A stretch of DNA of 30,349 bases from an uncultured Bacilli bacterium (GCA_947625315.1 CANQOE010000001.1:1-30349), one strand, 5' to 3'. Counted from the first letter of the stretch, positions 4,574-30,349 are shown. The notes: generated from the sequence alone by a model not told the origin. Numbers and translations: made by a program.

Positions 4574-5761
4574 GTGATGTTTATGAAACAAGTTATTATA
4601 ATTAAATATGGGGAATTATCAACAAAAAAAGATAATATAAACTTTTTTTTAAAACAATTAAAAGATAATATTGTTAAAGTATTAGATGAGAATAGTCAAA
4701 TAGATTATGATAAGGGTAGAATGTTAATCTATACTTTAAATATTGAAGATACACTAAAAAAACTTCAAAAAGTATTTGGAATACACGAAATTAATGTTGG
4801 TTATGTAATAGATAGTTTAGATTTTGAAGAAATCTTTAAAAAAGTGTTAGATTTATTAAAAGAAAAAGAATTTAAAACTTTTAAAGTAGAAAGTAAAAGA
4901 AGTAATAAAAAAATTGAAAAAACTAGTGTTGAATTAAGTAGAAGTTTGGGAGCTTTTATTTTAAAAAATCTAAAAGATATAAAAGTAGATGTGCATAATC
5001 CGGATTTAATGATTAATGTTGAATATCGGCTAAATAATACCATTGTTTATTTTGAAAAAGTTAAAGGATTAGGAGGATATCCCGTTGGTACTTTAGGTAA
5101 AGGTTTACTTATGTTAAGTGGAGGAATTGATTCGCCTGTAGCCGGGTTCTTAACGATTAAAAGAGGCGTAAAGTTAGAAGCTATATATTTTGAAAGTCCA
5201 CCTCATACAAGTGAAAATGCGAAAGATAAAGTAAAAGAATTAGCTAAAAAATTAAGTGTTTATAATAATGATATTGTCCTTCATGTTATTAATTTTACGA
5301 AAATTCAAGAAGCAATATATAAAAATATTAATCATGAATATTTAATTACAATTATGCGACGAATGATGTATCGCATTAGTGCTATCGTGGCTAGTCGCCG
5401 AAATTGTCGAATTTTAGTTAATGGGGAATCTATTGGGCAAGTAGCTAGTCAAACTCTAAGTAGTATGGCCTCAATAAATGAAGTTGTAAGAATGCCGGTT
5501 ATTAGACCTTTAGCGTGTTTTGATAAATTAGATATTATTGAGATAGCTAAAAAAATTGATACTTATAATACTTCTATTTTACCATATGAAGATTGTTGTA
5601 CGATATTTGTTCCCAAACATCCAGTGATTAATCCTAGCACGCAAAAATGTCAAGAATATGAAAAGTTAATAAACTGGGAAGATTTAATTTATGAAGCAGT
5701 TAAAAATGCCGAAGTTATTAAAATAAGTAATAATACTAAAGAATATAATGATTTATTATAA
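4574..5761 (+). CDS. thiI: tRNA 4-thiouridine(8) synthase ThiI (start uncertain: 4574, 4577 or 4583)
   Basis: IKYGEL N-terminus, THUMP domain (TFKVESKRS), PP-loop LSGGIDSPVA, GESIGQVASQT, EDCC. Confidence 0.93.
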   Translation: MMFMKQVIIIKYGELSTKKDNINFFLKQLKDNIVKVLDENSQIDYDKGRMLIYTLNIEDTLKKLQKVFGIHEINVGYVIDSLDFEEIFKKVLDLLKEKEFKTFKVESKRSNKKIEKTSVELSRSLGAFILKNLKDIKVDVHNPDLMINVEYRLNNTIVYFEKVKGLGGYPVGTLGKGLLMLSGGIDSPVAGFLTIKRGVKLEAIYFESPPHTSENAKDKVKELAKKLSVYNNDIVLHVINFTKIQEAIYKNINHEYLITIMRRMMYRISAIVASRRNCRILVNGESIGQVASQTLSSMASINEVVRMPVIRPLACFDKLDIIEIAKKIDTYNTSILPYEDCCTIFVPKHPVINPSTQKCQEYEKLINWEDLIYEAVKNAEVIKISNNTKEYNDLL

Positions 5762-7195
5762 ATTGTAAATATCTAAATATTTTTTATATTTTTTAATTAA
5801 TTCCTTAATGAATATTGAGGGATTTTTTTTAGCAACTAGTAAATAACATTTATTTTTAGTACGTGTTAAAGCTACATAGAATAGGCGACGTTCTTCTTCA
5901 TAGGGATATATATCTTTTTTAATAATATATTTTAAAATATGTTCATCTTTAATTTTAGAGGGAAGAGAATTTTGTTCATTTGTTAAATTGATAATTAAAA
6001 TATTATCTTCTTCTAAACCTTTTGATTTATGAATAGTTTTAAAATATATATGGTAATTTTTATATTTAAGAGAATTATTATGTACTTCTTGATGCGAAAT
6101 ATAATCATAGATATCATTATTATTGCGAGCTAAAATCATAAGGTTTGGTTCATTAATCATCTCTAATGCTTTAAAAAGCGCGGTATGTATATTTTGATAG
6201 TAAAGAATTGTTAAGGGTTTTTTTATATTTTTTGAGGAAGTTAAAGTCTTTTTTATTTGGCGAGGATTAGCCATGATGAAAGAACCAGCAATATTTATTA
6301 ATTCTTGACTATTGCGATAAGTGTTGGTTAAATATAGAGTTTGGGCAGGTTTAAAGTTTTGAGAAAAATCTAAAAAACTACTTAAATCACAACCTGAAAA
6401 ACGATAAATGGATTGAAAATCATCACCTACAACAGTCAAATATGCATGGGTTTTATGAATTATTTCTTTAACTAAATTTTCTCTTACAGGAGATGTGTCT
6501 TGATATTCATCAATAATAATATATTTATACTTATGGTTAATTCCTTTATTTTTAACTAAGGAAGTAGCTAGATAAATCATATCATCAAAATCAATAATAT
6601 TTTGGGATTTTTTTTCTAAAAGATACATTTCATAAATTTTTTTAATTATTAAAAGATGAGGTATATCTTTTTTAGAAGCTTTATTTATTAACTTATTAAA
6701 ATAAGATTGGTCATAATAAGTTGATATGTATAATCTAATAAAACGCGCAATAGTTTTTTTATAATTTTTAAAGTTAAGGTTTGTTAAATAATTTTTGGTT
6801 AAAAAATATTTTTGAAAATAAAAAGAGGGAGGTAGGGCCGAAAATATTTCTTCGATTAGATAGTCGAGTAAATCAGCTTCGGCAATATGATAAGAGATAT
6901 GATGGGATTTAATTATTTCTAAAGCTAATTTATGAAAAGTATAAACTTTATTGGGTTGGTTTAATTCGGTTTTGATTTTATTTTCTAAACTATTCGCGGC
7001 ATCATTAGTGAAAGTAATACATAAGATATCTTCTAATTTAATATTTTTAACCGTAACTAAATATTTAATTTTACCGACCATAGTTAAACTTTTACCCGAA
7101 CCAGCCCCGGCTACAATAATGGAATTAGTATTCGTGGTCATCGCGGCTTTTGTTTGTTCTTTATCAAGTGTGTGGCCTAAAACTTCTAGTTGCAT
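5756..7195 (-). CDS. UvrD/Rep-family SF1 helicase (short, helicase IV-like)
   Basis: Motifs AGAGSGKS, ITFTNDAA, IDEYQD, VGDDFQSIYRF, YRN, TIHKSKGLE, EERRLFYVALTR. Confidence 0.9.
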   Translation of the reverse strand: MQLEVLGHTLDKEQTKAAMTTNTNSIIVAGAGSGKSLTMVGKIKYLVTVKNIKLEDILCITFTNDAANSLENKIKTELNQPNKVYTFHKLALEIIKSHHISYHIAEADLLDYLIEEIFSALPPSFYFQKYFLTKNYLTNLNFKNYKKTIARFIRLYISTYYDQSYFNKLINKASKKDIPHLLIIKKIYEMYLLEKKSQNIIDFDDMIYLATSLVKNKGINHKYKYIIIDEYQDTSPVRENLVKEIIHKTHAYLTVVGDDFQSIYRFSGCDLSSFLDFSQNFKPAQTLYLTNTYRNSQELINIAGSFIMANPRQIKKTLTSSKNIKKPLTILYYQNIHTALFKALEMINEPNLMILARNNNDIYDYISHQEVHNNSLKYKNYHIYFKTIHKSKGLEEDNILIINLTNEQNSLPSKIKDEHILKYIIKKDIYPYEEERRLFYVALTRTKNKCYLLVAKKNPSIFIKELIKKYKKYLDIYNL

Positions 7196-11143: not shown

Positions 11144-11147
11144 AACT

Positions 11148-11333
11148 ATGGCAGTTCCTTTTAGAAGAACAAGCAAAACAAAAAAAAGAATGCGTCGTAC
11201 GCACTTAAAGAAAGAAGCACCTTCTATAACTACATGTCCAAAATGTGGAGCAGCTTTAAAACCTCATAGAGCATGTACTAAATGTGGCTATTATAAAGAT
11301 AGTGAAGTTATTAAAGTTGAAAATGAAGAATAG
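11148..11333 (+). CDS. rpmF: 50S ribosomal protein L32
   Basis: [23 protein letters not shown]...CTKC; GAAAGGAG SD supports ATG 11148 rather than 11124. Confidence 0.97.
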
Positions 11334-11355
11334 TTAGATTAATCTAGCTTTTTTT
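11332..11355 (+). terminator. Terminator after rpmF
   Basis: AGTTAGA...TCTAGCT hairpin followed by a T-run. Confidence 0.6.
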
Positions 11356-11367
11356 AATAATATTATC

Positions 11368-11396
11368 TTGATTAAATAGATAATTTATGGTATATT
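11368..11396 (+). promoter_or_regulatory. sigma-A promoter of sRNA A
   Basis: TTGATT-17 nt-TATATT with TG extension; conserved in unit C. Confidence 0.75.
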
Positions 11397-11400
11397 AAAT

Positions 11401-11514
11401 ATGTCAGAGAAATCTGCATAAAATAAAAAAGGATACATTTGAATGTGGAATCAAATGCTTCCCATAATAAGAGGTAGCATCTGAAATCAACAAAGGTTGA
11501 AATCAGATGCTTTT
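11401..11514 (+). ncRNA. Putative antitoxin sRNA A (~112 nt), antisense to the 3' part of the microprotein A mRNA
   Basis: Own promoter; CAGA-GAAA-TCTG hairpin; CATTTGA/TCAAATG stem; terminator AGCATCTGA...TCAGATGCT-TTT; no ORF. Confidence 0.7.
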
Positions 11515-11515
11515 A

Positions 11516-11593
11516 TTATTTATATAGTAAGGTGATTACTATGAAAAATAATAAGAAAATTATAATAAATAGAGATTGTTCTCTTTTTGTCAT
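11516..11593 (-). CDS. 25-aa hydrophobic microprotein MTKREQSLFIIIFLLFFIVITLLYK (putative type I toxin)
   Basis: GAAAGGCGGTGA SD; single TM-like stretch; paralogous to 12090..12167; own promoter. Confidence 0.8.
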   Translation of the reverse strand: MTKREQSLFIIIFLLFFIVITLLYK

Positions 11594-11656
11594 AATATCA
11601 CCGCCTTTCATAAAAGAAAGGGGAAGCATCTGATATTTTCAAATGTATCTATATAC

Positions 11657-11685
11657 ATTATACTAAACTTTTAGCTTATATGCAA
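11657..11685 (-). promoter_or_regulatory. sigma-A promoter of microprotein A
   Basis: TTGCAT-17 nt-TATAAT-GTATA; same architecture in all three units. Confidence 0.8.
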
Positions 11686-11755
11686 GGAAATAATTAATTT
11701 AAAATAAAATACTTGTCAAAAAATTTGGAGAGCACTAAATCTTTGTAAACTGTAT

Positions 11756-11806
11756 TCATAAAAATAGACAGATAGGAAATAAGATTAACAAATCCTTTTT
11801 CTTCAT
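11756..11806 (-). CDS. 16-aa microprotein MKKKDLLILFPICLFL (degenerate or truncated paralog; 23 codons to TAG at 11735 if the TGA is a nonsense mutation)
   Basis: GAAAGGGGG SD, GATATT-ATG context as in unit A, paralogous promoter. Confidence 0.5.
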   Translation of the reverse strand: MKKKDLLILFPICLFL

Positions 11807-11869
11807 AATATCAAGCCCCCTTTCTAAAATGAAAGTTGGCAAGCACTCATATTGTTAAACTTCCTATAC

Positions 11870-11898
11870 ATTATAGTAAACTTTTTAATTGAATGCAA
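11870..11898 (-). promoter_or_regulatory. sigma-A promoter of microprotein B
   Basis: TTGCAT-17 nt-TATAAT-GTATA; spacer contains AAAAGTTTA as in units A and C. Confidence 0.7.
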
Positions 11899-11943
11899 GA
11901 ATAAATAAATGAATTAATCTAGTTTTTTTATGATGTTTTTATC

Positions 11944-11972
11944 TTGCAAAAAATGATAATTTATGATATATT
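11944..11972 (+). promoter_or_regulatory. sigma-A promoter of sRNA C
   Basis: TTGCAA-17 nt-TATATT with TG extension. Confidence 0.75.
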
Positions 11973-11976
11973 AAAT

Positions 11977-12088
11977 ATGTCAGAGAAATCTGCATAAAAT
12001 AAAAAAGGATACATTTGAATGAGCAATCAAATGCTTTCCCAGTTTGGTAAGCATCTGAAATCAACAAAAGTTGAAATCAGATGCTTTT
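11977..12088 (+). ncRNA. Putative antitoxin sRNA C (~112 nt)
   Basis: Same three-hairpin layout as sRNA A; terminator AAGCATCTGA...TCAGATGCTT-TT. Confidence 0.7.
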
Positions 12089-12089
12089 G

Positions 12090-12167
12090 CTATTTTAGAA
12101 GTAAAACGATTACAACTAAGAATAGGAGTAATATTATAATAAATTGAGAAAATTCTCTTTTTGTCAT
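12090..12167 (-). CDS. 25-aa hydrophobic microprotein MTKREFSQFIIILLLFLVVIVLLLK (putative type I toxin)
   Basis: GAAAGGTGGTGG SD before ATG 12167; paralog of 11516..11593. Confidence 0.8.
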   Translation of the reverse strand: MTKREFSQFIIILLLFLVVIVLLLK

Positions 12168-12243
12168 AAATACCACCACCTTTCTTTTATCTTTTGACAA
12201 TTGAAAGGGAAAGCATCTGATATTTTCAAATGTATCTATATAC

Positions 12244-12272
12244 ATTATACTAAACTTTTGACTTATATGCAA
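12244..12272 (-). promoter_or_regulatory. sigma-A promoter of microprotein C
   Basis: TTGCAT-17 nt-TATAAT-GTATA. Confidence 0.8.
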
Positions 12273-12291
12273 GAATAAAGAGGATTATAAA

Positions 12292-12320
12292 TTTACTTTT
12301 TAGATCATTGATGTTATAAT
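12292..12320 (+). promoter_or_regulatory. sigma-A promoter for the 917-aa orphan
   Basis: TTTACT-17 nt-TATAAT with TG extension; AGGAGG SD follows. Confidence 0.6.
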
Positions 12321-12342
12321 AACACCTACAGGAGGTTTTATT

Positions 12343-15096
12343 TTGATGCTTATAAGTTTATTAAAAAAGTTTTTTAAGAGAAATAATAGTTATCAGGGTT
12401 TAGTAACATTTAATCAAAATATTGAAATACCTAAAAGAGAAGATATAACTGACAATAACGAATTAATTTTAATTGAAAAATATAAACAAGACTATAAAAA
12501 TAGATTATCTAAACTTAAGTATTTAACAAGTTTAGATATTAATTCTAAAACTTTAAAGAAAAATATAGAAATGAATATTGAATTATTGTTAAATATTTTT
12601 ATTGATGAAGAGGAAATTAAAAAGATTACATTAGAAGATAAAGTAAATTATTTAGTAAATATTCGAAAGTTAGACTTATACTCATTAACTATTTTAGATT
12701 TAGAAAAAGAAGTAATTACTAGACTAATAGCTTTAAAAGAAATTTATCAAGAGAGAAAAACATATATGATATGGTTTAAAAAAGAGGCAATGGCTAATGA
12801 AATAAATAATTTAACTTTTGCTTTAACAATAATTGGGAATAATAAGTTAGCTATAGAACTAGAAAAGAAAAGATATTTAACTCAAGCTATATATATGGTA
12901 AAAGAAGAAGAAAATGCCAATTTAGAACAAGCAATAAACAAAAAAAGAAGATTTTTACAAAATATTATTAATTATTTAATGACAGATGAAAATATAATTA
13001 TAAGAGAAGACGAAAAACATATTTTAATAGATATGGCAGATGTCGAAAGAAGACTAGAAATATATGCTTATCAACATAAAGGCAATGTTGATAAATTAAA
13101 AGAAGATTTAAAGCTTCTATGGGAAGGAACAATTGATTATTCTAATAAAGAAAATCTTTTAAAGATTATTAAAGATTTAGAAATAAAATATTTGGTGTTT
13201 TATAAATATGGCAAAAAAAATATTGTTTTAGAAGATTTAAAAACATTATATTTAATCAAATTTAATATATTAGTTTTGAGTAATAATGGAATTAGAAAAA
13301 CAATTGTAGATGAAAATACTAACGATATAGAATTAGAGTGTTATAGTAATATAATAATGCGCGAAATTGAAGACTTACTTAAAGGAGAGGGAGAACTTAA
13401 TAGTGAAGAAGCTATAAAAATCATCCTAAATATTCTAAAAAGAAATAAAGATAAAATAATTGCTGAAGATATTTTAACTAATAAATATTTATTTAATATA
13501 TGTTTGGCCATGAAAAGTAAAACAGAATTAATAAATATGTTAAAAAATTTTAAAGTAAAGAGAAAATATTATCAACCACCTAATTTTGGAGATAAATTAT
13601 CATTAATTTGGGAAGATGAATTATCACTCGAAACAATTTATCGAATAGAGTTAGCTTTAAATAATGGTAATGATGTAAAACTATATGAGATATTAAAAGA
13701 TGATATTTATCCTGATGAAGAATATTATTATTTACCTGAAGGTTTAAAAGAAATAAATTATTATCCAGATTTTGTGCCAAAATCTAAAATTGCTTTTTAT
13801 TTTGGTGAAGAGAATGTGATTAAAAAAATTGAAAAGCTAGCAAATAATAAAACCGTAGTATTTCCTAATTCTTTTGTAAAAATAAAAGGTAGTGCCAAAC
13901 TTTTTGTCAAAATTAAAAGCTTGGAAATAAGCAAAAATATTATATTCGATGAACTTAAAGATTTTAAAATATTAGAAAGGACAAAAAACAAAATTGTTTG
14001 TCATTTAAGAAGCACTAATGAAATAATTACTTGCGATAGAGAGGCATTTATTAAAAATAAATGGGGTAATGATGTTGCTTTAGGTCTTTTAAAATTTAAT
14101 CCAGATAAAAATTTATATATAGAACAATATATGAAAAAAACAGATGATAATGAATCGAAAACAAAACTTTTAGAGATAAGTTATGCTGATGTTTCAACTA
14201 AATATGGCGATTTTTGTTTGCATATAGAAAAAAATTATTATGGAAAAAGTTATAAAAGTCCTTATTTAACTTTATCTTTATGTTATGGTCATCATAATGA
14301 AGAAATCTATAAATTAGCAAATAATATTGATTATTCAGATTTTTGCTTATTTCAAACTAGAATAGTACCTTTTGCAGATTGTGAAAGATGGGATTTTGGT
14401 TCTTTTAAAAAACGCTGGTTTAGAGAATTTAGAAGTATCCTTAATCGTGATAGCATTTATAATAATGCAAAATATATAAGTTCGGCACTTTATACTTTCG
14501 AATCAAATGGTAATTATGGAGTAATTTTTATGAATGCAAAAATGAAATTACCTGAAAAATATATATTAACAGCATTATTATTACTTGAGGAATATGCTTA
14601 TGAATATGAAAAAGAAGATTGGGATTCTAAAGCTTATATTGGGAATGGTAATGAGATGCTATTTTTATTAAAAAAAGACAAAAATGTAAGAGTTATTCAT
14701 AAAGAATATATAGATGGAGTTTGGACAAAAAAAGAGTTTGAACCTATTTATGGAGAAAATCTAAAATTTACGAGAAAAGATTTTGAACAAATATTGGTTA
14801 ATATTGAAAATTATTCTTTAAGTGATGATTTAAAAAAGTATGTAATTGATGAATTAAATACATTCTTAAACTTACATAATGAAAATCTTACGGAAATTAA
14901 AAGCATTTTAAAAGGATATGAATATAATGATTTGCTTAATAAATATTTTAAAGGTAATATTGCTTTAAATGTGGAGAGGTTGATAGAAGATATTATGAAT
15001 AATTTTCATATTAGTATAGAAGAGTTAATAGGTAGTAAAGAAAAATTGGAGCAACTAAATAGCTTGCAATTGACGAGAAAGTTGAAAAAAGATTAA
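12343..15096 (+). CDS. Large hypothetical protein (helical N-terminus, possible degenerate BspA-type LRRs, unknown C-terminal domain)
   Basis: 917-aa open frame with SD and promoter; LPEGLKEI and VVFPNSFVKI resemble LRR_5 units. Confidence 0.8.
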   Translation: MMLISLLKKFFKRNNSYQGLVTFNQNIEIPKREDITDNNELILIEKYKQDYKNRLSKLKYLTSLDINSKTLKKNIEMNIELLLNIFIDEEEIKKITLEDKVNYLVNIRKLDLYSLTILDLEKEVITRLIALKEIYQERKTYMIWFKKEAMANEINNLTFALTIIGNNKLAIELEKKRYLTQAIYMVKEEENANLEQAINKKRRFLQNIINYLMTDENIIIREDEKHILIDMADVERRLEIYAYQHKGNVDKLKEDLKLLWEGTIDYSNKENLLKIIKDLEIKYLVFYKYGKKNIVLEDLKTLYLIKFNILVLSNNGIRKTIVDENTNDIELECYSNIIMREIEDLLKGEGELNSEEAIKIILNILKRNKDKIIAEDILTNKYLFNICLAMKSKTELINMLKNFKVKRKYYQPPNFGDKLSLIWEDELSLETIYRIELALNNGNDVKLYEILKDDIYPDEEYYYLPEGLKEINYYPDFVPKSKIAFYFGEENVIKKIEKLANNKTVVFPNSFVKIKGSAKLFVKIKSLEISKNIIFDELKDFKILERTKNKIVCHLRSTNEIITCDREAFIKNKWGNDVALGLLKFNPDKNLYIEQYMKKTDDNESKTKLLEISYADVSTKYGDFCLHIEKNYYGKSYKSPYLTLSLCYGHHNEEIYKLANNIDYSDFCLFQTRIVPFADCERWDFGSFKKRWFREFRSILNRDSIYNNAKYISSALYTFESNGNYGVIFMNAKMKLPEKYILTALLLLEEYAYEYEKEDWDSKAYIGNGNEMLFLLKKDKNVRVIHKEYIDGVWTKKEFEPIYGENLKFTRKDFEQILVNIENYSLSDDLKKYVIDELNTFLNLHNENLTEIKSILKGYEYNDLLNKYFKGNIALNVERLIEDIMNNFHISIEELIGSKEKLEQLNSLQLTRKLKKD

Positions 15097-19206: not shown

Positions 19207-20148
19207 ATGAAGAAAAAAGTTATATTTATGGGAACTCCGGAATTTGCAGTACCTATTTTAAAAACGTTAATTAAAATTAAAGATATCGAAGTTGTAATGG
19301 TCATTAGTCGAACGGATGCTTATGTGGGTCGCAAAAAAGAATTAAAAATGACCCCCGTAAAAGAAGAAGCTTTAAAAAATAAGATAGAAGTAAATACCCC
19401 AATTAAAATTGGTGATATATATACCAATATTAAAAATAAAGAACCCGATTTAATTGTAACTTGTGCTTATGGCCAAATTGTTCCTAAAAGTATTTTAGAT
19501 ATTCCTAAATTAGGCTGTATTAATGTTCATGCATCCTTACTTCCAAAGTATCGAGGAGGAGCCCCAATTCATCGAGCAATTATGAATGGGGATGCTATAA
19601 CGGGAGTAACAATTATGTATATGGATGAAGGCATGGATAGTGGTGATATCATAAAAGAAGCTAAGATAGACATTTTACCCGAAGATAATGTCGAAACAAT
19701 GCATGCTAAATTAAGTAAATTAGGAGCGCAAACTTTAGAAGAAGTTCTACCTTCTATCTTAGATGGGACTAATGAACGTGTTAAACAAAATGTTGAAGAA
19801 GTAACTTTTGCCAAAATAATTAAAAGAGAAGATGAACATTTAGATTTTCAGAAAAAAGCTTTAGATATTCATAATCAAGTGCGAGGTTTAAACTCTTGGC
19901 CTTTAGCTAATACTTTAATAAATAAAGAAGAATTTAAAGTTTTAGAAGGTTTTATTGGCGAAGATAAACCGCAAGATAAAGAAGCTGGAGTAATTTGTAA
20001 AATAACTAAAGAAGCTATAGGTATTACTTGTTTAGATAAAATATATTATATAACCAAAATAAAACCATTTGGCAAAAAGGTTATGTTAGTTAAAGATTAT
20101 TTAAATGGAGTTAATAAAGATAAATTAATGGGTGCGAAAGTAGAGTGA
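19207..20148 (+). CDS. fmt: Methionyl-tRNA formyltransferase
   Basis: IFMGTPEFAV, CAYGQI, INVHASLLPKYRGGAPI, MDEGMDSGD. Confidence 0.97.
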   Translation: MKKKVIFMGTPEFAVPILKTLIKIKDIEVVMVISRTDAYVGRKKELKMTPVKEEALKNKIEVNTPIKIGDIYTNIKNKEPDLIVTCAYGQIVPKSILDIPKLGCINVHASLLPKYRGGAPIHRAIMNGDAITGVTIMYMDEGMDSGDIIKEAKIDILPEDNVETMHAKLSKLGAQTLEEVLPSILDGTNERVKQNVEEVTFAKIIKREDEHLDFQKKALDIHNQVRGLNSWPLANTLINKEEFKVLEGFIGEDKPQDKEAGVICKITKEAIGITCLDKIYYITKIKPFGKKVMLVKDYLNGVNKDKLMGAKVE

Positions 20149-20774
20149 TTAATTTGTTAAAAGAAAAAATAAAAGAGTTAAAACAAACTAGTAAAGGAAA
20201 AGCTATTTTAAAATTAATAGGTTGGGGAATTTTCTTTTTATTAATTATTATTTTTATTTTAATATCGATGCTGATTACTTCTTTAAACGACAATAATATA
20301 AATAATATTGATAAAGGTAATCCAACTCCTGAAGAAGAAAAAATAAATGTTGAAGATATCCTAAGTGATTTAGTAAATAAAGATTTTACTTATACTTATG
20401 AAGTAAACACCGAAGCTGAAAAATATCTTTTTAAGGGTGAGAAAAAAGGCGATACCAATACGGGCTTTAAAGTAAGTAGTTTAAAAACAATTAATTATTA
20501 TATTGATAATACCGGAATATATGAACAAACTACCGACAATAAAACATTAATTGAAGATTTTTATGCTAATTTAGAAGAACAATATTTAAAAGAAGATAGT
20601 TTAAAAGAATTATTAACTAGTTTAGAATATATAAGAGAAGATAATCTAAATACTATTAATTTAAGTTATCAAAATGAAGAATTAAAGATAACAGTTATTA
20701 TTGAAAATAAATTAATAAAAACTATAAATATCGAAAAAAATGATACAGTTTATAATTTAGAATATAATTTCTAG
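20145..20774 (+). CDS. Hypothetical membrane-anchored protein
   Basis: GTG start overlapping the fmt stop; one TM near the N-terminus. Confidence 0.7.
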   Translation: MINLLKEKIKELKQTSKGKAILKLIGWGIFFLLIIIFILISMLITSLNDNNINNIDKGNPTPEEEKINVEDILSDLVNKDFTYTYEVNTEAEKYLFKGEKKGDTNTGFKVSSLKTINYYIDNTGIYEQTTDNKTLIEDFYANLEEQYLKEDSLKELLTSLEYIREDNLNTINLSYQNEELKITVIIENKLIKTINIEKNDTVYNLEYNF

Positions 20775-20783
20775 GAGGAAAAA

Positions 20784-21803
20784 ATGGATAGTTTATTTAA
20801 TAGAGAACGCAGCGAATTAGAAGAATATTTTTTAAGTATTGGAGAGAAAAAATTTAAAGCTATCCAAGTTTTTGAATGGTTATATGAAAAGAAAGTTTGG
20901 AATATTCAAGAATTTTCTAATATTAAAAAAGAAGTTAGAGATAGATTAGAAAAAGACTTTACAACTACTTTAATTAAATGTGTTAAAAGACAAGTTGATA
21001 AAGATGTTAAAAAGTATTTATTTGAATTACAAGATAAAAATTATATTGAAGCCGTTTTAATGTATCACGATTATGGGATAAGTGTTTGTGTTTCTAGTGA
21101 AGTTGGTTGTAATATGGCTTGTAAGTTTTGTGAAAGTGGTCGGCAAAAAAAAGTACGCAATTTAGAGGCTAATGAAATTGTAGAACAAATACTCGTAATT
21201 GAGGAAATGGAAAATGTTCGCATTAGTAGTGTCGTTATTATGGGTATTGGTGAACCTTTAGATAATTATGATAATATCAGAAGATTTATTCGGATTATTA
21301 ATGATGCTAAAGGTTTAAAAATTGGGGCAAGACATATAACTCTTTCAACTTGTGGGTTAGTTCCTAAGATTAAAGAATTAGCTCAAGAACAATTACAAAT
21401 CAATTTGGCAATAAGTTTACACGCGCCAACTGATGAATTACGAAATAAACTTATGCCTGTAAACAAAGTGTATAATATTGACACTTTAATGGGGGCAATT
21501 AAAGAATATTTGCAACTTACTTCTAGACGAGTAACGATAGAATATGTTATGCTTAATAATGTAAATGATAGTATTGATTGTGCGAAAACTTTAGCGCATC
21601 TTTTAAAGGGGCTAAATGTTTATGTCAATTTAATTCCTTATAATGAAACAAATGCTAAAGAGTTTAAAAGAAGTAAAAAGGAAACTATTTTAAAATTTTA
21701 TGATACCTTAAAAAAAGAAGGTCTAAATGTTATAATTAGAAGAGAATTTGGAAGCAAAATCGATGGAGCCTGTGGGCAATTAAGAGGAAGTGAAAGAATT
21801 TGA
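20784..21803 (+). CDS. rlmN: 23S rRNA m2A2503 / tRNA A37 methyltransferase RlmN
   Basis: CNMACKFC radical-SAM motif, MGIGEP, ISLHAP, NLIPYN, GACGQL. Confidence 0.96.
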   Translation: MDSLFNRERSELEEYFLSIGEKKFKAIQVFEWLYEKKVWNIQEFSNIKKEVRDRLEKDFTTTLIKCVKRQVDKDVKKYLFELQDKNYIEAVLMYHDYGISVCVSSEVGCNMACKFCESGRQKKVRNLEANEIVEQILVIEEMENVRISSVVIMGIGEPLDNYDNIRRFIRIINDAKGLKIGARHITLSTCGLVPKIKELAQEQLQINLAISLHAPTDELRNKLMPVNKVYNIDTLMGAIKEYLQLTSRRVTIEYVMLNNVNDSIDCAKTLAHLLKGLNVYVNLIPYNETNAKEFKRSKKETILKFYDTLKKEGLNVIIRREFGSKIDGACGQLRGSERI

Positions 21804-22546
21804 AGTCATTTTATTTAACGGATACAGGAAAAGTACGAAGTCATAATGAAGACTCCGTAACTATTTTAAAGAATGCTAATAACGAATATTTATTAATTGT
21901 CTGTGATGGTATGGGAGGACATCGTAAGGGCGAAGTTGCCTCATCGATGGCTATTGCTTATATGGGAAGTCGATTTAATAAATCTTCTTGTATTGGTTCG
22001 AAAATGGATGCTATAAACTGGTTAAAAGAAAGCGTTAATGAAATAAATCGCAATATATTAGAATATGCCCATAATAACCCTGATTCTACAGGAATGGGAA
22101 CTACTTTAGTCGTGGCTATATATACTAAAGATTATTTAATCTATGGTAATATTGGGGATTCTTCGGGTTATGTTGTAAAAAATAAAAAATTATATAAAAT
22201 TACCAAAGATCATACTTTAGTTAATTTATTAGTACAAGCGGGTAATTTAACCGAAGAAGAAGCTAAGTTCCATCCTAAAAAAAATGTGTTAATGCGCGCT
22301 TTAGGAGCTTCGGAAAATGCGGAGTTAGATGTTTTTGATGTCATTGATGAAAATATTGAAGCCTTATTCTTATGTAGTGATGGCTTAACTAATATGTTAA
22401 GTGATGAACAAATTGAAAAAGTGTTAAATGATGAAGAATTAGAAATAGAAGAAAAAGTTAGTAAATTAATTCGAAAATGTAATGCACGTGGGGGGACAGA
22501 TAATATTTCGGTAGCTTATCTAGTAATAGAGAGGAGTAAAAACTAA
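21800..22546 (+). CDS. prpC: PP2C Ser/Thr phosphatase (PrpC/Stp1)
   Basis: TDTGKVRSHNED, VCDGMGGH, GMGTT, NIGDS, LCSDGLT, GGTDNIS. Confidence 0.93.
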   Translation: MKSFYLTDTGKVRSHNEDSVTILKNANNEYLLIVCDGMGGHRKGEVASSMAIAYMGSRFNKSSCIGSKMDAINWLKESVNEINRNILEYAHNNPDSTGMGTTLVVAIYTKDYLIYGNIGDSSGYVVKNKKLYKITKDHTLVNLLVQAGNLTEEEAKFHPKKNVLMRALGASENAELDVFDVIDENIEALFLCSDGLTNMLSDEQIEKVLNDEELEIEEKVSKLIRKCNARGGTDNISVAYLVIERSKN

Positions 22547-24312
22547 TGATAATGAAAGGGCAAAAGATTAGTGACCGTTACCAAATAATTAAGTCAATTG
22601 GCGAAGGGGGAATGGCTAATGTTTATTTAGCTTATGATACTATTTTAAATAGAAATGTAGCCGTAAAAATATTAAGAGGTGATTTATCTAATGATGAAAA
22701 GTTTGTAAGACGTTTTCAAAGAGAAGCTTTAGCTTCTAGTAGTTTAAATCATCCTAATATTGTCGAAGTTTATGATGTTGGGGAAGATAATGGTAATTAT
22801 TATATTGTAATGGAATATATCGAAGGCAAACATTTAAAGAACTTATTAAAAAAACGCGGTAAATTAACTTTAAGTGAAGCAGTAGATATAATGATTCAAA
22901 TTGCCGATGGCATGAGTGTAGCTCATGATGCTTATATAATCCATCGCGATATTAAACCTCAAAATATTATGATTTTAGAAAATGGTTTAGTTAAAATTAC
23001 CGATTTTGGAATAGCTATGGCCATGAATGCTACTCAATTAACCCAAACTAATTCTGTAATGGGAAGTGTGCATTATTTACCACCAGAACAAGCTAATGGT
23101 CAAGGATCAACTTTACAAAGCGATATATATTCGATGGGAATTGTAATGTATGAGTTAATTACCGGCGAATTACCTTTTAAAGGCGATAATGCCGTAGAAA
23201 TTGCTTTAAAACATTTAAAAGAACCAGTACCCGATATTCGTAATATTGTTCCTAATGTACCCAATAGTGTGGTTAATATAATTAAACGAGCAACTGCCAA
23301 AAATCCCAAAAATAGATATCATGATGCGCGGGAAATGTATGAAGATTTAAAAACATGTTTAGATGATGCCCGTAGTCAAGAAGAAATAATAACTTATGAA
23401 TATAGTGAAAATGATACCGATGATACAAAATTAATGAAATTAGTTAAAAAAGAAAATAAAAATAAAGAAACCAAAAAAGAACCAAAAGAAGAAGTTGTAG
23501 CCAAAAAAGTAGAGATGGGAAGTGAAAAAGTGAAAAAGTCCAATAAAGTTGTGGTTATGTTAGCAGTTATATTTACCTTTTTAGTATTATTAATTACTTC
23601 ATTATTCTTAATTCTTTCTTTAATTCAAGGAAAGAAAGACGAATCAATAATAGTTCCTAATATTGAGGGAATGAGTTTACAAGAAGCTGTTAAAACTTTA
23701 CAAGATGAAGGTTTTAATATTGCCGAAGATTATGTTGAGGAAGCATCAACCACTGTAGAAGAAGGTAAAGCTATTGGAACTAAACCAGAAGTTGGGACCA
23801 AAAGAAGAAAAGGTACCGAAGTAACAATTAGAGTTTCTATCGGAGATGTTCAAGTAGAAATAGAAGATTATACAGGCCAAAATTATTATGAAATTAAAGG
23901 TAAATTAGAAGCTTTAGGTTTAATTGTTAGCTTAGAAGCAAAAGATACTAATCCGGATGAAGAACACGACCCATACGAAATAATTGGCCAATCAGTAGAA
24001 GCTGGAGAAAAATTATCTTTAGGGGAAACTATTATTTTGTATTATTCTAATAGTATTGTTTATCCCGATTTTACCGATGGTACTTATACAGTAGAAGATG
24101 TTAAAGAATTTGCCGAAAATTATAAATTACATTTAGATATTAAATATATGACATATACAGATAATAGTTATGAAGATGGCCAAATTGTTAAACAAAGTAG
24201 AGGTAAAGGTACACCAGTAAAAGATGGGGCATCATTTACAATTACGGTTGCCCAAAAAGATAATAGTGATGAAAATATTACCGATAAGTGTGAAGAGTTA
24301 GGTTTATGTTAA
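22546..24312 (+). CDS. prkC: PASTA-domain Ser/Thr kinase (PrkC/PknB)
   Basis: IGEGGMANVY, VAVKIL, HRDIKPQN, TDFGIA, GSVHYLPPEQ; one TM; PASTA repeats. Confidence 0.95.
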   Translation: MIMKGQKISDRYQIIKSIGEGGMANVYLAYDTILNRNVAVKILRGDLSNDEKFVRRFQREALASSSLNHPNIVEVYDVGEDNGNYYIVMEYIEGKHLKNLLKKRGKLTLSEAVDIMIQIADGMSVAHDAYIIHRDIKPQNIMILENGLVKITDFGIAMAMNATQLTQTNSVMGSVHYLPPEQANGQGSTLQSDIYSMGIVMYELITGELPFKGDNAVEIALKHLKEPVPDIRNIVPNVPNSVVNIIKRATAKNPKNRYHDAREMYEDLKTCLDDARSQEEIITYEYSENDTDDTKLMKLVKKENKNKETKKEPKEEVVAKKVEMGSEKVKKSNKVVVMLAVIFTFLVLLITSLFLILSLIQGKKDESIIVPNIEGMSLQEAVKTLQDEGFNIAEDYVEEASTTVEEGKAIGTKPEVGTKRRKGTEVTIRVSIGDVQVEIEDYTGQNYYEIKGKLEALGLIVSLEAKDTNPDEEHDPYEIIGQSVEAGEKLSLGETIILYYSNSIVYPDFTDGTYTVEDVKEFAENYKLHLDIKYMTYTDNSYEDGQIVKQSRGKGTPVKDGASFTITVAQKDNSDENITDKCEELGLC

Positions 24313-25139
24313 AAGGCAAGATTATTAAAAATATTAGTAATGATTATGTTGTTTTAGTTAATTCAACATTGATAAATTGCAAAGCTAGAGGAAAGTTTAG
24401 GATGGCTAATCTAACTCCTCTAGTAGGCGATTTAGTAGAAATAGATGAAAAAAATAATTATATCTTAAATATTTTAAAAAGAACTAATGAATTAAAAAGA
24501 CCAAATGTAGCTAATATCGATGTCGCTTTAATTATTACAAGTTTAAAGAAACCGGATTTAAGTTTAACTTTACTAGATAAACAAATAGTAAGTATTATGC
24601 TTGCTAAAATAGAACCAGTTATTTGTTTTACGAAATTAGATTTATTAACAAAAGAAGAATTAAAAGAATTTAAAAGTATTTATGATTATTATAATAAAAT
24701 TGGGATTAAAACTTTTGATAATGTTCATTTAAAAGATTTAATTAAATATTTAAGTCAAAAACAAGTTGTTTTAACTGGACAAACGGGAGCCGGTAAATCA
24801 AGTTTAATCAATAAATTAGATAGTTCTTTAAATTTAGAAGTTGGAGAGATAAGTGAAGCTTTAGGACGAGGCAAACATACAACAAGACATCGAGAATTTT
24901 ATAAAATAAAAGATTTTTATGTTTGTGATACTCCCGGGTTTAGTAGTTTGGATTTAAAAGAATATAAAAAGGAAGATATTAAAAAGTGTTTTAAAGAATT
25001 TAATGATTATAAATGTGAGTATCAAGATTGTAATCATTTAAAAGAAGATAATTGTGCTGTTAAACAAGCCGTAGAAAATGGTAAGATTAGAAATAGTCGT
25101 TATCAAAGTTATAAAGAGTTTATAAAAGAGGTGGATTAA
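24306..25139 (+). CDS. rsgA: Small ribosomal subunit biogenesis GTPase RsgA (CpgA)
   Basis: TKLDL, GQTGAGKSSL, GRGKHTT, DTPGF, Zn site CEYQDCNHLKEDNC. Confidence 0.95.
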   Translation: MLKGKIIKNISNDYVVLVNSTLINCKARGKFRMANLTPLVGDLVEIDEKNNYILNILKRTNELKRPNVANIDVALIITSLKKPDLSLTLLDKQIVSIMLAKIEPVICFTKLDLLTKEELKEFKSIYDYYNKIGIKTFDNVHLKDLIKYLSQKQVVLTGQTGAGKSSLINKLDSSLNLEVGEISEALGRGKHTTRHREFYKIKDFYVCDTPGFSSLDLKEYKKEDIKKCFKEFNDYKCEYQDCNHLKEDNCAVKQAVENGKIRNSRYQSYKEFIKEVD

Positions 25140-25141
25140 GT

Positions 25142-25768
25142 TTGAAAATAGCAGTTTCGTTTTTAACTTCTTATTATAGTAAAGAAAAGACTATTGAATT
25201 AATTACTAAAACTAATGCGGATTTTATCCATGTCGATATTATGGATGGAGGATTTGTCAATCATAAAAATACGGAATTAAATTTTGAAGGGCTTTTAGAA
25301 AATGTTTCTAAACCATTAGATATTCATTTAATGTGTTTTGATCCTATTATTTATATAAAGAAATTAAGTATTTTAAACCCCCAATATATAACATTTCATT
25401 TAGAAGCTACGAAAGATATTGTTAAAACAATTGAAGAGATAAAAATGTTAGGTATTAAAGTAGGAATGGCTTTAAAACCTAATACAGAAGTAAATGAAAT
25501 TAAACCATATTTAGCATTAGTTGATTTAGTATTAGTTATGAGTGTGGAACCAGGAGCTGGAGGGCAAGAGTTTCAAGAAATGAGTATTAAAAAAATTAAA
25601 GAATTAAAAAATATAAGAGAAGAAAACAATCTTAAATACGCTATTGAAGTTGATGGGGGAATAAATGCTACATCGATAAATATGGTTAAAGATGTTGATA
25701 TAGCAGTTGTTGGTTCTTATGTTTGTAAGTCAAATAATTATCAACAACAAATTGACAATTTAAAGTAA
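25142..25768 (+). CDS. rpe: Ribulose-phosphate 3-epimerase
   Basis: HVDIMDG, DIHLM, TFHLE, MSVEPGAGGQ, EVDGGIN. Confidence 0.95.
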   Translation: MKIAVSFLTSYYSKEKTIELITKTNADFIHVDIMDGGFVNHKNTELNFEGLLENVSKPLDIHLMCFDPIIYIKKLSILNPQYITFHLEATKDIVKTIEEIKMLGIKVGMALKPNTEVNEIKPYLALVDLVLVMSVEPGAGGQEFQEMSIKKIKELKNIREENNLKYAIEVDGGINATSINMVKDVDIAVVGSYVCKSNNYQQQIDNLK

Positions 25769-25904: not shown

Positions 25905-26981
25905 ATGAAACCTTTTAAAGCTAATAATTTACCAATAAAATATAATATTGATAAAGAACTACTTTCTTTAATTGGAGAAGCTAATGAAAAATACGGAGAA
26001 TATAAATCTAATTTAAAAAATTGTAAATTTGATTCAAGATTTTTTCTAGATTCAATAATTTTAAGTGAAAGTTTAAAATCAACGCAAATTGAAGGAACAC
26101 AAATATCTCAAGATGATATGTATTATTTAAAATATATGCCTAATACGGATGATACAAAAGAAATCCAAAATTTAAAAAAAGTAATTGAATATGCTAAGGA
26201 TAATTTGAAAGATACCAAAAAAATAGATATAAAATTTTTAAATAATATTCATAAAATATTACTTGATAGTGTAAGAGGAAGCAATAAAGAACCAGGACAA
26301 ATTCGAACTATTCAAAATTGGATTGGTCCTAAAGGGTGTACAATAGATGAAGCAATATTTGTTCCACCTATTCCTGAAGAAGTTCCTATACTTTTAAATA
26401 ATTTATTTGATTATATGAATGATTCATATATAGACCCAATATTTATAAATATGGCAATTTCGCATTCCCAATTTGAAACAATCCATGCTTATAGAGATGG
26501 AAATGGCCGATTAGGTAGAGCTCTTATACCTATACAGTTAGCTTTACTTACAGATGAAGAACCTATTTTATTTTTATCGGAAGTAATAGAATTATATAAA
26601 CCAAGTTATCATAAATTTTTAAATGAAAGTCGCAATGGCAATATTTTAGGATTTATTAAATTCTTTTTACAATGTATTATAGAACAATGTAATAATAATA
26701 TGGCTAAAATAAGTAGAATTCAAAACATTTATGAAAAAGATATGCGTTTAATAGAAACAATAAATAGTAATGCTGTTTATAGAATTATGCCCGCGATAAT
26801 GCACCAAATAGTTTTCACAAAAAAAGAAATTGCTGAAGAATCTGGAGTTTCTCGAAATACAGTATCTATATTGATTGATAAATTAGAAGAATTGGGAATT
26901 TTAGTTAAAGGCTCTATTTATGCTAAATTAAGTTATAAATATAAAGAAATGTATAATGTGTTTGTAGGAAGAGATAGTTAA
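25905..26981 (+). CDS. Fic family protein (N-terminal inhibitory motif, Fic core, C-terminal wHTH)
   Basis: STQIEG inhibitory motif; HAYRDGNGRLGR catalytic loop; TKKEIAEESGVSRNTVS...LEELGIL HTH. Confidence 0.9.
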   Translation: MKPFKANNLPIKYNIDKELLSLIGEANEKYGEYKSNLKNCKFDSRFFLDSIILSESLKSTQIEGTQISQDDMYYLKYMPNTDDTKEIQNLKKVIEYAKDNLKDTKKIDIKFLNNIHKILLDSVRGSNKEPGQIRTIQNWIGPKGCTIDEAIFVPPIPEEVPILLNNLFDYMNDSYIDPIFINMAISHSQFETIHAYRDGNGRLGRALIPIQLALLTDEEPILFLSEVIELYKPSYHKFLNESRNGNILGFIKFFLQCIIEQCNNNMAKISRIQNIYEKDMRLIETINSNAVYRIMPAIMHQIVFTKKEIAEESGVSRNTVSILIDKLEELGILVKGSIYAKLSYKYKEMYNVFVGRDS

Positions 26982-27098: not shown

Positions 27099-27689
27099 TT
27101 GAATCAATATTTTACAAATAATCCTAACTTAAAAAGTCAAGAGATAACAATTAAATATACTTATAATAATCATGACTATATATTTTTAAGTGATAATGGG
27201 GTATTTTCTAAAAATAAAATTGATTATGGTAGTAGAGTATTAGTAGAAACTTATTTAAAGAATAAAAAAGATATTAAAAACTTTTTAGATGTTGGATGTG
27301 GTTATGGTTTTATAAGTATTGTATTAGCTAATGAATTAAAAATAAATGCTATGGGGGTTGATGTTAACGAGCGAGCCATAAAGTTAGCACAGATAAATAG
27401 TTTAAAAAATAAAGTTAAGGGAGATTATTTAGTTAGTGATGTGTATAGTAATGTCAAGCAAACTTTTGATTTAATAATTACTAATCCTCCGATTAGAGCA
27501 GGTAAACAAGTTGTTTTAAAAATATTAGAAGAAGCCCATAATTATTTGAATAAAGATGGAGAATTATGGTTTGCAATACGTAAAGATCAGGGAGCTAATA
27601 GCATAAAAAAAGCTTTAGAAAATTTATATAAAATTACGTTAGTAGAAAAAAATAAAGGTTTTTATATTTTTCTTGCAAAAAATAATTGA
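27099..27689 (+). CDS. Class I SAM methyltransferase (RsmC/YbxB-like)
   Basis: GVFSKNKIDYGS, LDVGCGYG, TNPPIRAGK; immediately upstream of rpoB, as for B. subtilis ybxB. Confidence 0.88.
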   Translation: MNQYFTNNPNLKSQEITIKYTYNNHDYIFLSDNGVFSKNKIDYGSRVLVETYLKNKKDIKNFLDVGCGYGFISIVLANELKINAMGVDVNERAIKLAQINSLKNKVKGDYLVSDVYSNVKQTFDLIITNPPIRAGKQVVLKILEEAHNYLNKDGELWFAIRKDQGANSIKKALENLYKITLVEKNKGFYIFLAKNN

Positions 27690-27714
27690 CAAGGGTTTAT
27701 TTTCTTGATAAAAT
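27686..27714 (+). promoter_or_regulatory. sigma-A promoter of rpoB
   Basis: TTGACA-17 nt-TAAAAT with TG extension. Confidence 0.75.
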
Positions 27715-27781: not shown

Positions 27782-30349
27782 GTGGCTTATAAGATTGAAA
27801 AATTTGGAGATCACAGAGAAAGAAGATCTTTTGCAACTTCCAAAAATACTATGGAGTTACAAGATTTATTAGAGATTCAAAAGAAAAGTTACCAAGAGTT
27901 TTTAGAAGTAGGAATTAAAGAGGTATTTGAAGATTTATTTCCCGTCGAATCTTTTACCGGCAATATTTCTTTAGAGTTTGGTGATTATTCCTTTGAAGAA
28001 CCTAGGTATTCCATAAAAGAGGCCAAAGAAAGAATGGTCAATTATGCAGCACCTTTAAAGGTTCAAGCTCGAGTATATATCCATGAAACTGGAGAAGTAA
28101 AAGAACAAGAAATATTTTTAGGGGATATGCCTTTAATGACGGAGGCTGGTACCTTTATTATCAATGGTGCCGAAAGAGTTATTGTTTCCCAATTAGTTAG
28201 AAGTCCATCTATTTATTTTAAAAGAGAGATTGATAAAAATGGGCGGAGAATTATAAGTGGGGAAGTTATACCTAATAAAGGTACTTGGTTAGAATATGAA
28301 CTTGATGCTCGTAATATTATGTATGTAAGAATTGATAGAACAAGAAAAGTTCCTGTTACAACATTTTTAAGAGCTTTAGGTTTATCTAATGATGAAGATA
28401 TTTATCAAGTATTTGGGGAAAATGATTATTTAGTTAATACTATTGAAAAAGATAATACCAAAAATACAGATGAAGCTTTAATTGAAATATATGAAAAATT
28501 AAGACCAGGAGAACCAGCAACACTAGATAGTAGTAAAAACCAATTAGTTACAAGATTTTTTGATAGATTTAGATATGATTTAGCTAAAGTAGGTCGTTAT
28601 AAATTTAATAAAAAATTAAATGTAGTAGATAGATTACTAGGTTGTACTTTAGCCGAAGATATTAAAGATGGTAAGAAGGTTGTGGTAGCTAAAGGGACTT
28701 TAGTTACAAAAGATGTTTTAAATACTTTAAAACCAATATTTGCTAATGGTTATAATGTTAAAGAAACAATTATTAATGAAGAACTTGACCAATATAATAA
28801 AATTCAAGAAGTTTTAGTATACAATAAAGAAAACCCTGATAAAGTAATTAAATTAATTGGTAATGATCAAAGTGTTGATGTTAAGAGATTAACAATACCG
28901 GATGTATATGCTTCTGTATCTTATTACTTAAATTTACAAGATAATATTGGTAGTACTGATGAAATAGATAATTTAGGAAATCGAAGAGTTAGACAAGTTG
29001 GTGAATTAATTCAAAATGTTTTTAAAACTGGTATGGCTAGAATGGAAAGAGTAGTAAGAGAGCGAATGACTACCCAAGAACTTGATAGTTTAACACCTAA
29101 AACTTTAATTAATATAAGACCAGTAACGGCGGCTTTAAAAGAATTCTTTGGTTCATCTCAATTATCTAAGTTTATGGATCAAATTAATCCAATCGCGGAA
29201 TTAACCGATAAAAGACGTCTATCTAGTTTAGGTCCTGGAGGTCTTTCAAGAGATAGAGCCGGAATGGATGTAAGAGATGTCAACGCATCCCATTATGGTA
29301 GAATATGTCCAATTGAATCACCTGAAGGTCAAAATATCGGCTTAATTACTTCTTTAGCTGGTTATGCCAAAATAAATGAATATGGCTTTATTATGACTCC
29401 TTATCGCAAAGTTAAAGATGGAGTTGTTACAGATGAAGTTGTCTATATGACGGCTGATGAAGAAAACGATTATTATATTTCCCAAGCAACTGTCGAACTT
29501 GATGACAATAATCGCATTAAAAATGAGGAAATTTTATGTCGTTTAAATGGCGATAACGTAATGGTTAAAAGAGAAAATGTTAATTATGTCGATGTAGCAC
29601 CAAGTCAAATTGTAGCTATTACAACTTCTTGTATTCCATTCTTGGAATATGATGATGCTAATAGAACACTGATGGGTGCCAACATGCAAAGACAAGCAGT
29701 TCCCCTTCTTACTAGTGAAGCACCAATTGTTGGTACAGGTGTAGAATATATCGCGGCGAGAGATTCTGGTTCAACAATTGTTTGTAAGGCTGATGGAGTT
29801 GTAGAATATGCTGATTCTCGTAAAATTGTTGTTAAAAATGCGAAGGGTAAAGATACTTATTATCTAGCGGATTTTGAAAGAACTAATGCTTCAACTGCTT
29901 TAAATCATCATCCTTTAGTTAAAAAAGGTGATAAAGTTCATCGGGGAATGGTTATCGCAGATGGACCATCTACCGAAAAAGGTGAACTAGCTTTAGGTAA
30001 AAATATGACTGTTGCTTTCATGACCTTTAATGGCTATAATTATGAAGATGCTGTTATCTTAAATGAAAGATTAGTTAAAGATGATGTTTATACATCATTA
30101 CATATAGATCACTATGATATCGATTGTCGCGATACTAAACTAGGGCCAGAAGAAATTACCAGAGATATTCCAAATGTGGGTGAAGAAGCTCGGAAAAACT
30201 TAGATTCTTCAGGTATTGTTCGAATTGGTACCGAAGTTAAAGAAGGAGATATCTTAGTTGGTAAAGTTACTCCTAAGGGTGTTCAAGAATTAACTAGTGA
30301 AGAAAAATTATTACATGCGATATTTGGTGAAAAAACAAGAGAAGTAAGA
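27782..30349 (+). CDS. rpoB: RNA polymerase beta subunit (3'-partial, runs off the window; absent from the ORF track)
   Basis: GTG start after GGGGTGA SD; GTFIINGAERVIVSQL, EFFGSSQLS, HYGRICPIE, MGANMQRQAVP, GYNYEDA, LVGKVTPKG. Confidence 0.98.
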   Translation, partial: MAYKIEKFGDHRERRSFATSKNTMELQDLLEIQKKSYQEFLEVGIKEVFEDLFPVESFTGNISLEFGDYSFEEPRYSIKEAKERMVNYAAPLKVQARVYIHETGEVKEQEIFLGDMPLMTEAGTFIINGAERVIVSQLVRSPSIYFKREIDKNGRRIISGEVIPNKGTWLEYELDARNIMYVRIDRTRKVPVTTFLRALGLSNDEDIYQVFGENDYLVNTIEKDNTKNTDEALIEIYEKLRPGEPATLDSSKNQLVTRFFDRFRYDLAKVGRYKFNKKLNVVDRLLGCTLAEDIKDGKKVVVAKGTLVTKDVLNTLKPIFANGYNVKETIINEELDQYNKIQEVLVYNKENPDKVIKLIGNDQSVDVKRLTIPDVYASVSYYLNLQDNIGSTDEIDNLGNRRVRQVGELIQNVFKTGMARMERVVRERMTTQELDSLTPKTLINIRPVTAALKEFFGSSQLSKFMDQINPIAELTDKRRLSSLGPGGLSRDRAGMDVRDVNASHYGRICPIESPEGQNIGLITSLAGYAKINEYGFIMTPYRKVKDGVVTDEVVYMTADEENDYYISQATVELDDNNRIKNEEILCRLNGDNVMVKRENVNYVDVAPSQIVAITTSCIPFLEYDDANRTLMGANMQRQAVPLLTSEAPIVGTGVEYIAARDSGSTIVCKADGVVEYADSRKIVVKNAKGKDTYYLADFERTNASTALNHHPLVKKGDKVHRGMVIADGPSTEKGELALGKNMTVAFMTFNGYNYEDAVILNERLVKDDVYTSLHIDHYDIDCRDTKLGPEEITRDIPNVGEEARKNLDSSGIVRIGTEVKEGDILVGKVTPKGVQELTSEEKLLHAIFGEKTREVR

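Follow-up and report, generated by a model that had tools for sequence, protein, structure and literature searches.

The window, a stretch of 30,349 nucleotides from an uncultured Bacilli bacterium, ends within an rpoB gene that encodes lysine and aspartate at the positions equivalent to Gln513 and His526 of Escherichia coli. The question raised by this locus is whether the combination K513/D526 (K/D) is an allele selected recently in one strain, an error of assembly or an inherited property of a lineage. The distribution and phylogeny of the pair argue for inheritance: K/D is probably ancient and of single origin, and the whole subclade that carries it is predicted to have a target-based insensitivity to rifamycins that is intrinsic and not acquired. 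A probability of about 0.75 is given to this reading.

The host is an uncultured, small-genome gut member of the Bacilli. Its genus includes ‘Candidatus Caccenecus avistercoris’, whose RpoB is 92% identical to that of the window and which is filed at NCBI under Bacilli incertae sedis. The order is one which we take to be RFN20 of the GTDB. The genome assembly has 1.08 Mb in 142 contigs, is 92.5% complete and has a G+C content of about 26%; that of the window is about 22-32%, and its genes are open under translation table 11. Other relatives of the RpoB sequence include many MAGs filed as ‘uncultured Bacilli’ from the guts of rabbits, chickens, Hadza humans and ruminants, as well as ‘Firmicutes bacterium CAG:822’, with 70% identity to the window. 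The best-matching public runs, represented by Logan contigs, are rabbit gut metagenomes that share 0.17-0.23 of the sampled words, and there is a weak hint that the host itself came from a rabbit gut.

The rest of the window has features of its own. A run of Firmicutes-like genes at 19207-25768 consists of fmt, an unnamed open reading frame, rlmN, a PP2C phosphatase, a Ser/Thr kinase with PASTA domains, rsgA and rpe. The PASTA kinase suggests that the host still senses peptidoglycan, and for this reason the host is probably not wall-less as Mollicutes are. Within 11144-15096, 1.2 kb without an open reading frame of at least 70 residues is followed by a 917-residue frame with a TTG start (12343-15096); this frame has no Pfam match at E≤1e-5, and an Rfam search of the stretch gave nothing. 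Rfam and tRNA scans of the whole window found only a tRNA-Gly. On the minus strand, 5756-7195 encodes a UvrD-type protein of 479 residues. In NCBIfam this protein comes closest to DNA helicase IV (HelD), with 272 bits, which is under the cut-off; its best stretch corresponds to profile positions 388-676 of 684, the C-terminal part only. Members of the HelD family include factors that recycle RNA polymerase and also HelR, which protects against rifamycins, and a shortened HelD-like gene beside a rewritten rifampicin pocket may be worth a look.

The gene at the end of the contig belongs to the RpoB profile, since it scores 1131 bits against TIGR02013 of NCBIfam (cut-off 801), and the nearest solved structures are the beta subunits of Bacillus subtilis and Staphylococcus aureus. 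Translation probably begins with the GTG at 27782, because the alignment with most relatives begins at residue 4; GGGGTGA stands ahead of this codon. A putative promoter of the gene's own lies at 27686-27714 (TTGACA, a 17-nt spacer and TAAAAT, with a TG extension; 11 of 12 positions match) and runs over the stop of a ybxB-like gene upstream, which encodes a methyltransferase (27099-27689). In place of rplJ-rplL, the upstream neighbours are this gene and one for a Fic-domain protein (25905-26981). The open frames of congeners run to 1214-1231 residues where the contig allows, and that of the window stops at codon 859; a search of the 92.5%-complete assembly for the 3′ third of the gene did not find it. 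The same assembly has a single rpoB match, and no second copy of the rpoB2 type was found in it. The features of the gene are collected in Table 1.

Table 1. Position of rpoB and of its rifampicin-pocket features in the window (residue numbers of E. coli RpoB)
Feature	Position	Strand	Remark
rpoB, 5′ part, 859 codons	27773..30349	+	cut by contig end
Rifampicin cluster I, residues 507-534	29150..29233	+	ungapped alignment
AAG, Lys at position 513 (Gln in E. coli and B. subtilis)	29168..29170	+	alignment
GAT, Asp at position 526 (His in E. coli and B. subtilis)	29207..29209	+	alignment
AAC, Asn at position 551 (family-wide state)	29282..29284	+	alignment
Rifampicin cluster II, residues 563-574	29318..29353	+	alignment

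Residues are numbered after E. coli K-12 RpoB, to which the window was indexed by tblastn and MAFFT, and the alignment of the two through cluster I has no gap. On this alignment all the coordinates and residues of the original prediction are exact: K513, D526, N551 and S563 as substitutions, with D516, S531 and I572 retained. Among the canonical resistance positions, it is at 513 and 526 only that the window has neither the E. coli nor the B. subtilis residue. The housekeeping RpoB has resistance-type residues, K513 and D526, at positions of rifamycin contact. V146, Q148, D516, R529, S531, L533, P564, I572, S574 and R687 are all kept. In cluster II, S563 (codon at 29318), Q567 and T573 are present, next to the retained P564, I572 and S574. 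The further residues of the pocket region are I518, I521, A522, L524, L530, S532, Q567 and T573, none of which is specific to the K/D clade. A522, L524 and L530 are the B. subtilis state; I518, I521, S532 and T573 are common to CAG:822, a relative in the family with Gln513 and His526; and Q567 also occurs in a relative with Gln513 and Asn526 (L043). Position 532, which is Ser in the window and Ala in most bacteria, is Cys in a sub-branch of the K/D clade that includes the metagenome loci L122, L133, L147 and L191. The suggestion that H551N and T563S might be compensatory is not borne out, since N551 and S563 are also present in family members with Q513/N526 and Q513/H526; as family-wide states they are not compensations for K/D.

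K513 and D526 are present in all 20 other sampled species of the genus, whose RpoB sequences are 91-93% identical to that of the window. Every relative on a genome contig with at least 79% identity has the same pair, and relatives at 69-74% have Q513 with either N526 or H526. All relatives within the clade, down to about 71% identity over the RpoB fragment, are K/D. A degenerate DNA motif that demands both K513 and D526 was run over 401 genomes of the order and is found in 108 of them (about 27%), in 31 of 145 genera and nearly all-or-none within each genus; motif scans of this kind presuppose an otherwise conserved cluster I, so that divergent carriers of the pair would escape them. In a scan at the level of the class, in which D526 was accepted with any residue at 513, eight of 401 genomes match, each of them a member of this family with K513; D526 is absent from the 351 genomes of 29 other families. 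The 108 K/D genomes use AAA or AAG at position 513 and GAT or GAC at position 526. Since both synonymous codons are in use at each position, the two residues are old and have been kept by selection.

The pair is also present on at least 120 metagenome contigs, from sources that include rabbit, chicken, human and rumen. Among the matches listed, all have 26-40% G+C and are 71-94% identical to the window over RpoB residues 380-700, and on both counts they come from this lineage only.

These distributions bear directly on two other explanations of the pair. That Lys and Asp are assembly or sequencing errors of the MAG has a negligible probability. Exact pieces from public runs cover 28800-29033 and 29327-29540, and the one point in favour of an error is that no exact contig from these runs was found to span 29168-29209. 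The same residues are encoded by over 100 genomes from separate assemblies and by the metagenome contigs just described, however, and contigs of related strains in Logan are unchanged at both codons, their sole change over the site being a synonymous C>T at 29206. Recent resistance acquired by a single strain, following exposure of the host animal to rifamycins, is hardly less far-fetched. Both substitutions are classic acquired alleles of pathogens, but the congeners are identical without exception and the pair extends over 31 genera, several host sources and a single clade, with synonymous codon variation throughout. Close relatives do not have the wild-type residues, and within the lineage the two residues are fixed and not polymorphic. 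Because of this distribution, both an assembly error and selection at the level of the strain are excluded. The original prediction had offered intrinsic and selected resistance as alternatives; with K/D fixed in the genus, confined to one clade and subject to synonymous turnover, the intrinsic alternative stands and strain-level selection falls away. The clade-wide comparison of rpoB, in the congeners as in the 108 of 401 genomes of the order, gives the same answer: the pair is fixed and not strain-specific.

In maximum-likelihood trees of RpoB, from which the columns of cluster I were taken out, the K/D sequences form one clade, with an SH-aLRT support of 100 when 18 K/D sequences are included and 84 when 37 are included, so that, in the larger tree, a single clade is preferred to two sister origins with a support no higher than 84. 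The K/D sequences lie nested among relatives that have Gln513/Asn526 and resemble Mollicutes in this respect, and they split into two well-supported subclades. That of the window has the pattern K-T525-D with Ser or Cys at 532, and the second has K-N/A525-D with Ala at 532. Asn is the residue at position 526 in the nearest relatives outside the clade. The Q513/N526 state is found in the sister clade, in the next outgroups within the family and in the second family of the order, which is represented by one sampled genome. The rpoB match of this genome (L022, G025:C15:69304-71856) has one in-frame TAA within it, for which a sequencing error, a pseudogene or recoding may account.

Most parsimoniously, Q513/N526 would be the ancestral background. 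On the stem of the K/D clade, Gln513 would then have become Lys (CAA to AAA) and Asn526 would have become Asp (AAY to GAY), with one change at each position. The K/D pair had a single origin, in the common ancestor of what is now a large part of the family, and purifying selection has kept it since. Position 526 also appears to have moved in the opposite direction. A nested group around CAG:822 (L050 and L052-L054) has His526, and its nearest relatives (L046-L048) and the deeper outgroups have Asn526, so that the resistance-type Asn seems to have given way to the sensitive-type His in a natural reversal.

No intermediates were found: none of 401 genomes combines K513 with Asn, His or Tyr at 526, and none of 251 has D526 in the absence of K513. 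Within the clade, 513 and 526 are invariant in all 37 aligned K/D sequences. Since the pair has a single origin, its coupling is one evolutionary event and not statistical evidence of co-evolution. Besides 513 and 526, only five RpoB columns distinguish the K/D clade from other members of the family. They lie near E. coli positions 104, 161, 893, 924 and 1038, and no known residue of the pocket is among them; given the single origin, these columns are indistinguishable from ordinary synapomorphies.

Both positions have well-described roles in the rifamycin pocket. In a crystal structure with Thermus thermophilus RNA polymerase, rifamycin B has the side-chain of Q513 among its binding partners, and the H526Y polymerase of E. 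coli is completely insensitive to rifampicin (PMC13404664). In simulations of the Mycobacterium tuberculosis enzyme, H526 directly contacts Q513, F514, M515, D516 and R529, the contact with Q513 being of the van der Waals type, and the carboxylate of Asp526 repels the O10 atom of rifampicin (PMC6902089). Q513K and H526D each raise the rifampicin MIC of M. tuberculosis to at least 128 mg/L (PMC9717584). Of the two positions, 513 is the one whose side-chain offers rifamycins a hydrogen bond, and a carboxylate at 526, as in the window, would repel the drug. Given these drug contacts and the MICs measured in M. tuberculosis, a polymerase with both Lys513 and Asp526 very likely has poor binding of rifampicin, and that of the whole subclade is most likely insensitive to rifampicin-type drugs. 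No gene with an Arr-ms domain (PF12120) was found in the host genome, in a search whose control matched Corynebacterium glutamicum; with neither Arr nor a second rpoB found, target alteration is the only rifamycin determinant seen.

An enzyme that is still sensitive to rifampicin, because K513, D526 or the background of the lineage mask each other, for example by restoring the shape of the drug-binding pocket, is unlikely. Since 513 and 526 are neighbours, their effects are not necessarily additive, and there are precedents for a genotype without its expected phenotype, as a 2025 survey cautions for 526N in Bifidobacterium and 518D in Francisella (PMC12337354). Masking would, however, have to overcome two changes that both remove or oppose direct contacts with the drug and that each give high-level resistance alone in M. 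tuberculosis. The hydrogen-bond geometry of the Gln amide would also not be reproducible by the side-chain of Lys.

Lys513 and Asp526 would be in touch within the pocket, probably through a charge-compensated contact. Because 513 adjoins 526, a Lys-Asp charge pair would readily explain their strict coupling. A stronger proposal, in which the two form an obligate co-evolved ion pair, single changes are deleterious or unstable in this background and a salt bridge takes the place of the Gln/His (or Gln/Asn) contact and fills the polar subsite used by rifamycins, is tentative and rather doubtful. If it were true, the pocket would be a ‘double-lock’ without single-step reversion, which would explain the lack of intermediates in about 400 genomes, and the insensitivity to rifamycins would be unusually robust, perhaps extending to other ligands of the pocket.

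Insensitivity of the enzyme does not by itself explain why the pair became fixed. It is conceivable, although not the favoured view, that K/D was fixed for reasons other than rifamycins and that insensitivity to the drug is a mere by-product. Candidate causes are drift in a reduced genome, the tuning of initiation, elongation or 5′-capping, and another inhibitor that binds to the pocket; capping comes into question because the 5′ end of the nascent RNA runs through the rifamycin pocket, and substitutions in this pocket alter the efficiency of NAD+ capping in vitro (PMC5737558). The ancestor probably had Asn526 already, so that additional selection by rifamycins is not obviously needed, and the return to His526 in the CAG:822 group suggests that there is no constant rifamycin pressure in the habitat. 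The 2025 survey itself permits neutral or other selective origins of such residues (PMC12337354). Drift, however, is difficult to reconcile with the strong constraint on both positions, which do not vary in any of the 37 aligned sequences or in the 108 genomes in spite of synonymous turnover. A by-product origin is a matter of why the pair became fixed, and it agrees with the predicted phenotype.

If this prediction of intrinsic insensitivity holds, a large group of gut Bacilli with small genomes, all of them uncultured, has a natural insensitivity to both rifampicin and rifaximin. In the family, roughly one sampled genome in four carries K/D, and related sequences are present in assemblies from rabbit, chicken, ruminant and human guts; the insensitivity would be relevant to the shifts of gut communities under rifaximin. 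Lineages with K/D, Q/N and Q/H exist side by side in the family and would constitute a natural experiment. The proposal that rifampicin could serve as a selective agent for culturing is plausible, and would offer a cheap selective condition for isolating these organisms, although the drug would spare other gut groups with 526N as well. The map of intrinsic rifamycin resistance gains one lineage and an unusual two-residue state, and the concept itself is unchanged.

A literature search found no paper on the K513/D526 pair as a natural state and, among the papers listed, no link between the RFN20/Caccenecus group and rifamycins, ‘Caccenecus’ being met only in a nomenclature list. The closest known systems are the lineages with a natural 526N, on which the original work is reportedly that of Gaurivaud et al. 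in 1996, with Spiroplasma citri. In the 2025 survey of 18,127 species by Bolourchi et al., intrinsic rifampicin resistance is predicted for 8%, with clusters that comprise Spirochaetia (531N) and the Mollicutes, Erysipelotrichales and Bifidobacteriales (526N), almost all Mollicutes being 526N (PMC12337354). The window resembles the 526N lineages in having an inherited substitution at 526 of a single housekeeping RpoB, with insensitivity as the prediction. The resemblance extends to low-G+C relatives in the Bacillota and to the exact 526N state, which is that of the nearest relatives outside the K/D clade. The parallel with Mollicutes that was drawn at the outset is therefore a sound one, since Mollicutes are mostly 526N and these nearest relatives are Q513/N526. 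Unlike the 526N lineages, the window has Asp at 526, and this residue is obligately paired with Lys513.

The acquired alleles of M. tuberculosis (Q432K and H445D) and of staphylococci (Q468K and H481D) have the same residues at the same positions of the pocket, and the equivalents of Q513K and H526D serve as predictors of resistance in S. aureus (PMC3993491). Acquired alleles, however, are recent and single, arise at the level of the strain and under therapy, whereas the K/D pair is ancient, fixed together and present in dozens of genera. A third comparison is with species that have more than one resistance-type residue in one RpoB, such as Nocardia and Nonomuraea. The panel of the 2025 survey consists of 57 mutations, and the survey gives 94 species with at least two panel residues, mostly actinomycetes with a duplicated rpoB (PMC12337354). 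In Nocardia and Nonomuraea, resistance typically resides in a duplicated paralogue next to a sensitive copy, whereas the genome of the window has a single rpoB. Among known systems, the K/D case is unusual only in its Asp526, in the Lys513 that obligately accompanies this residue and in belonging to an uncultured lineage known from MAGs.
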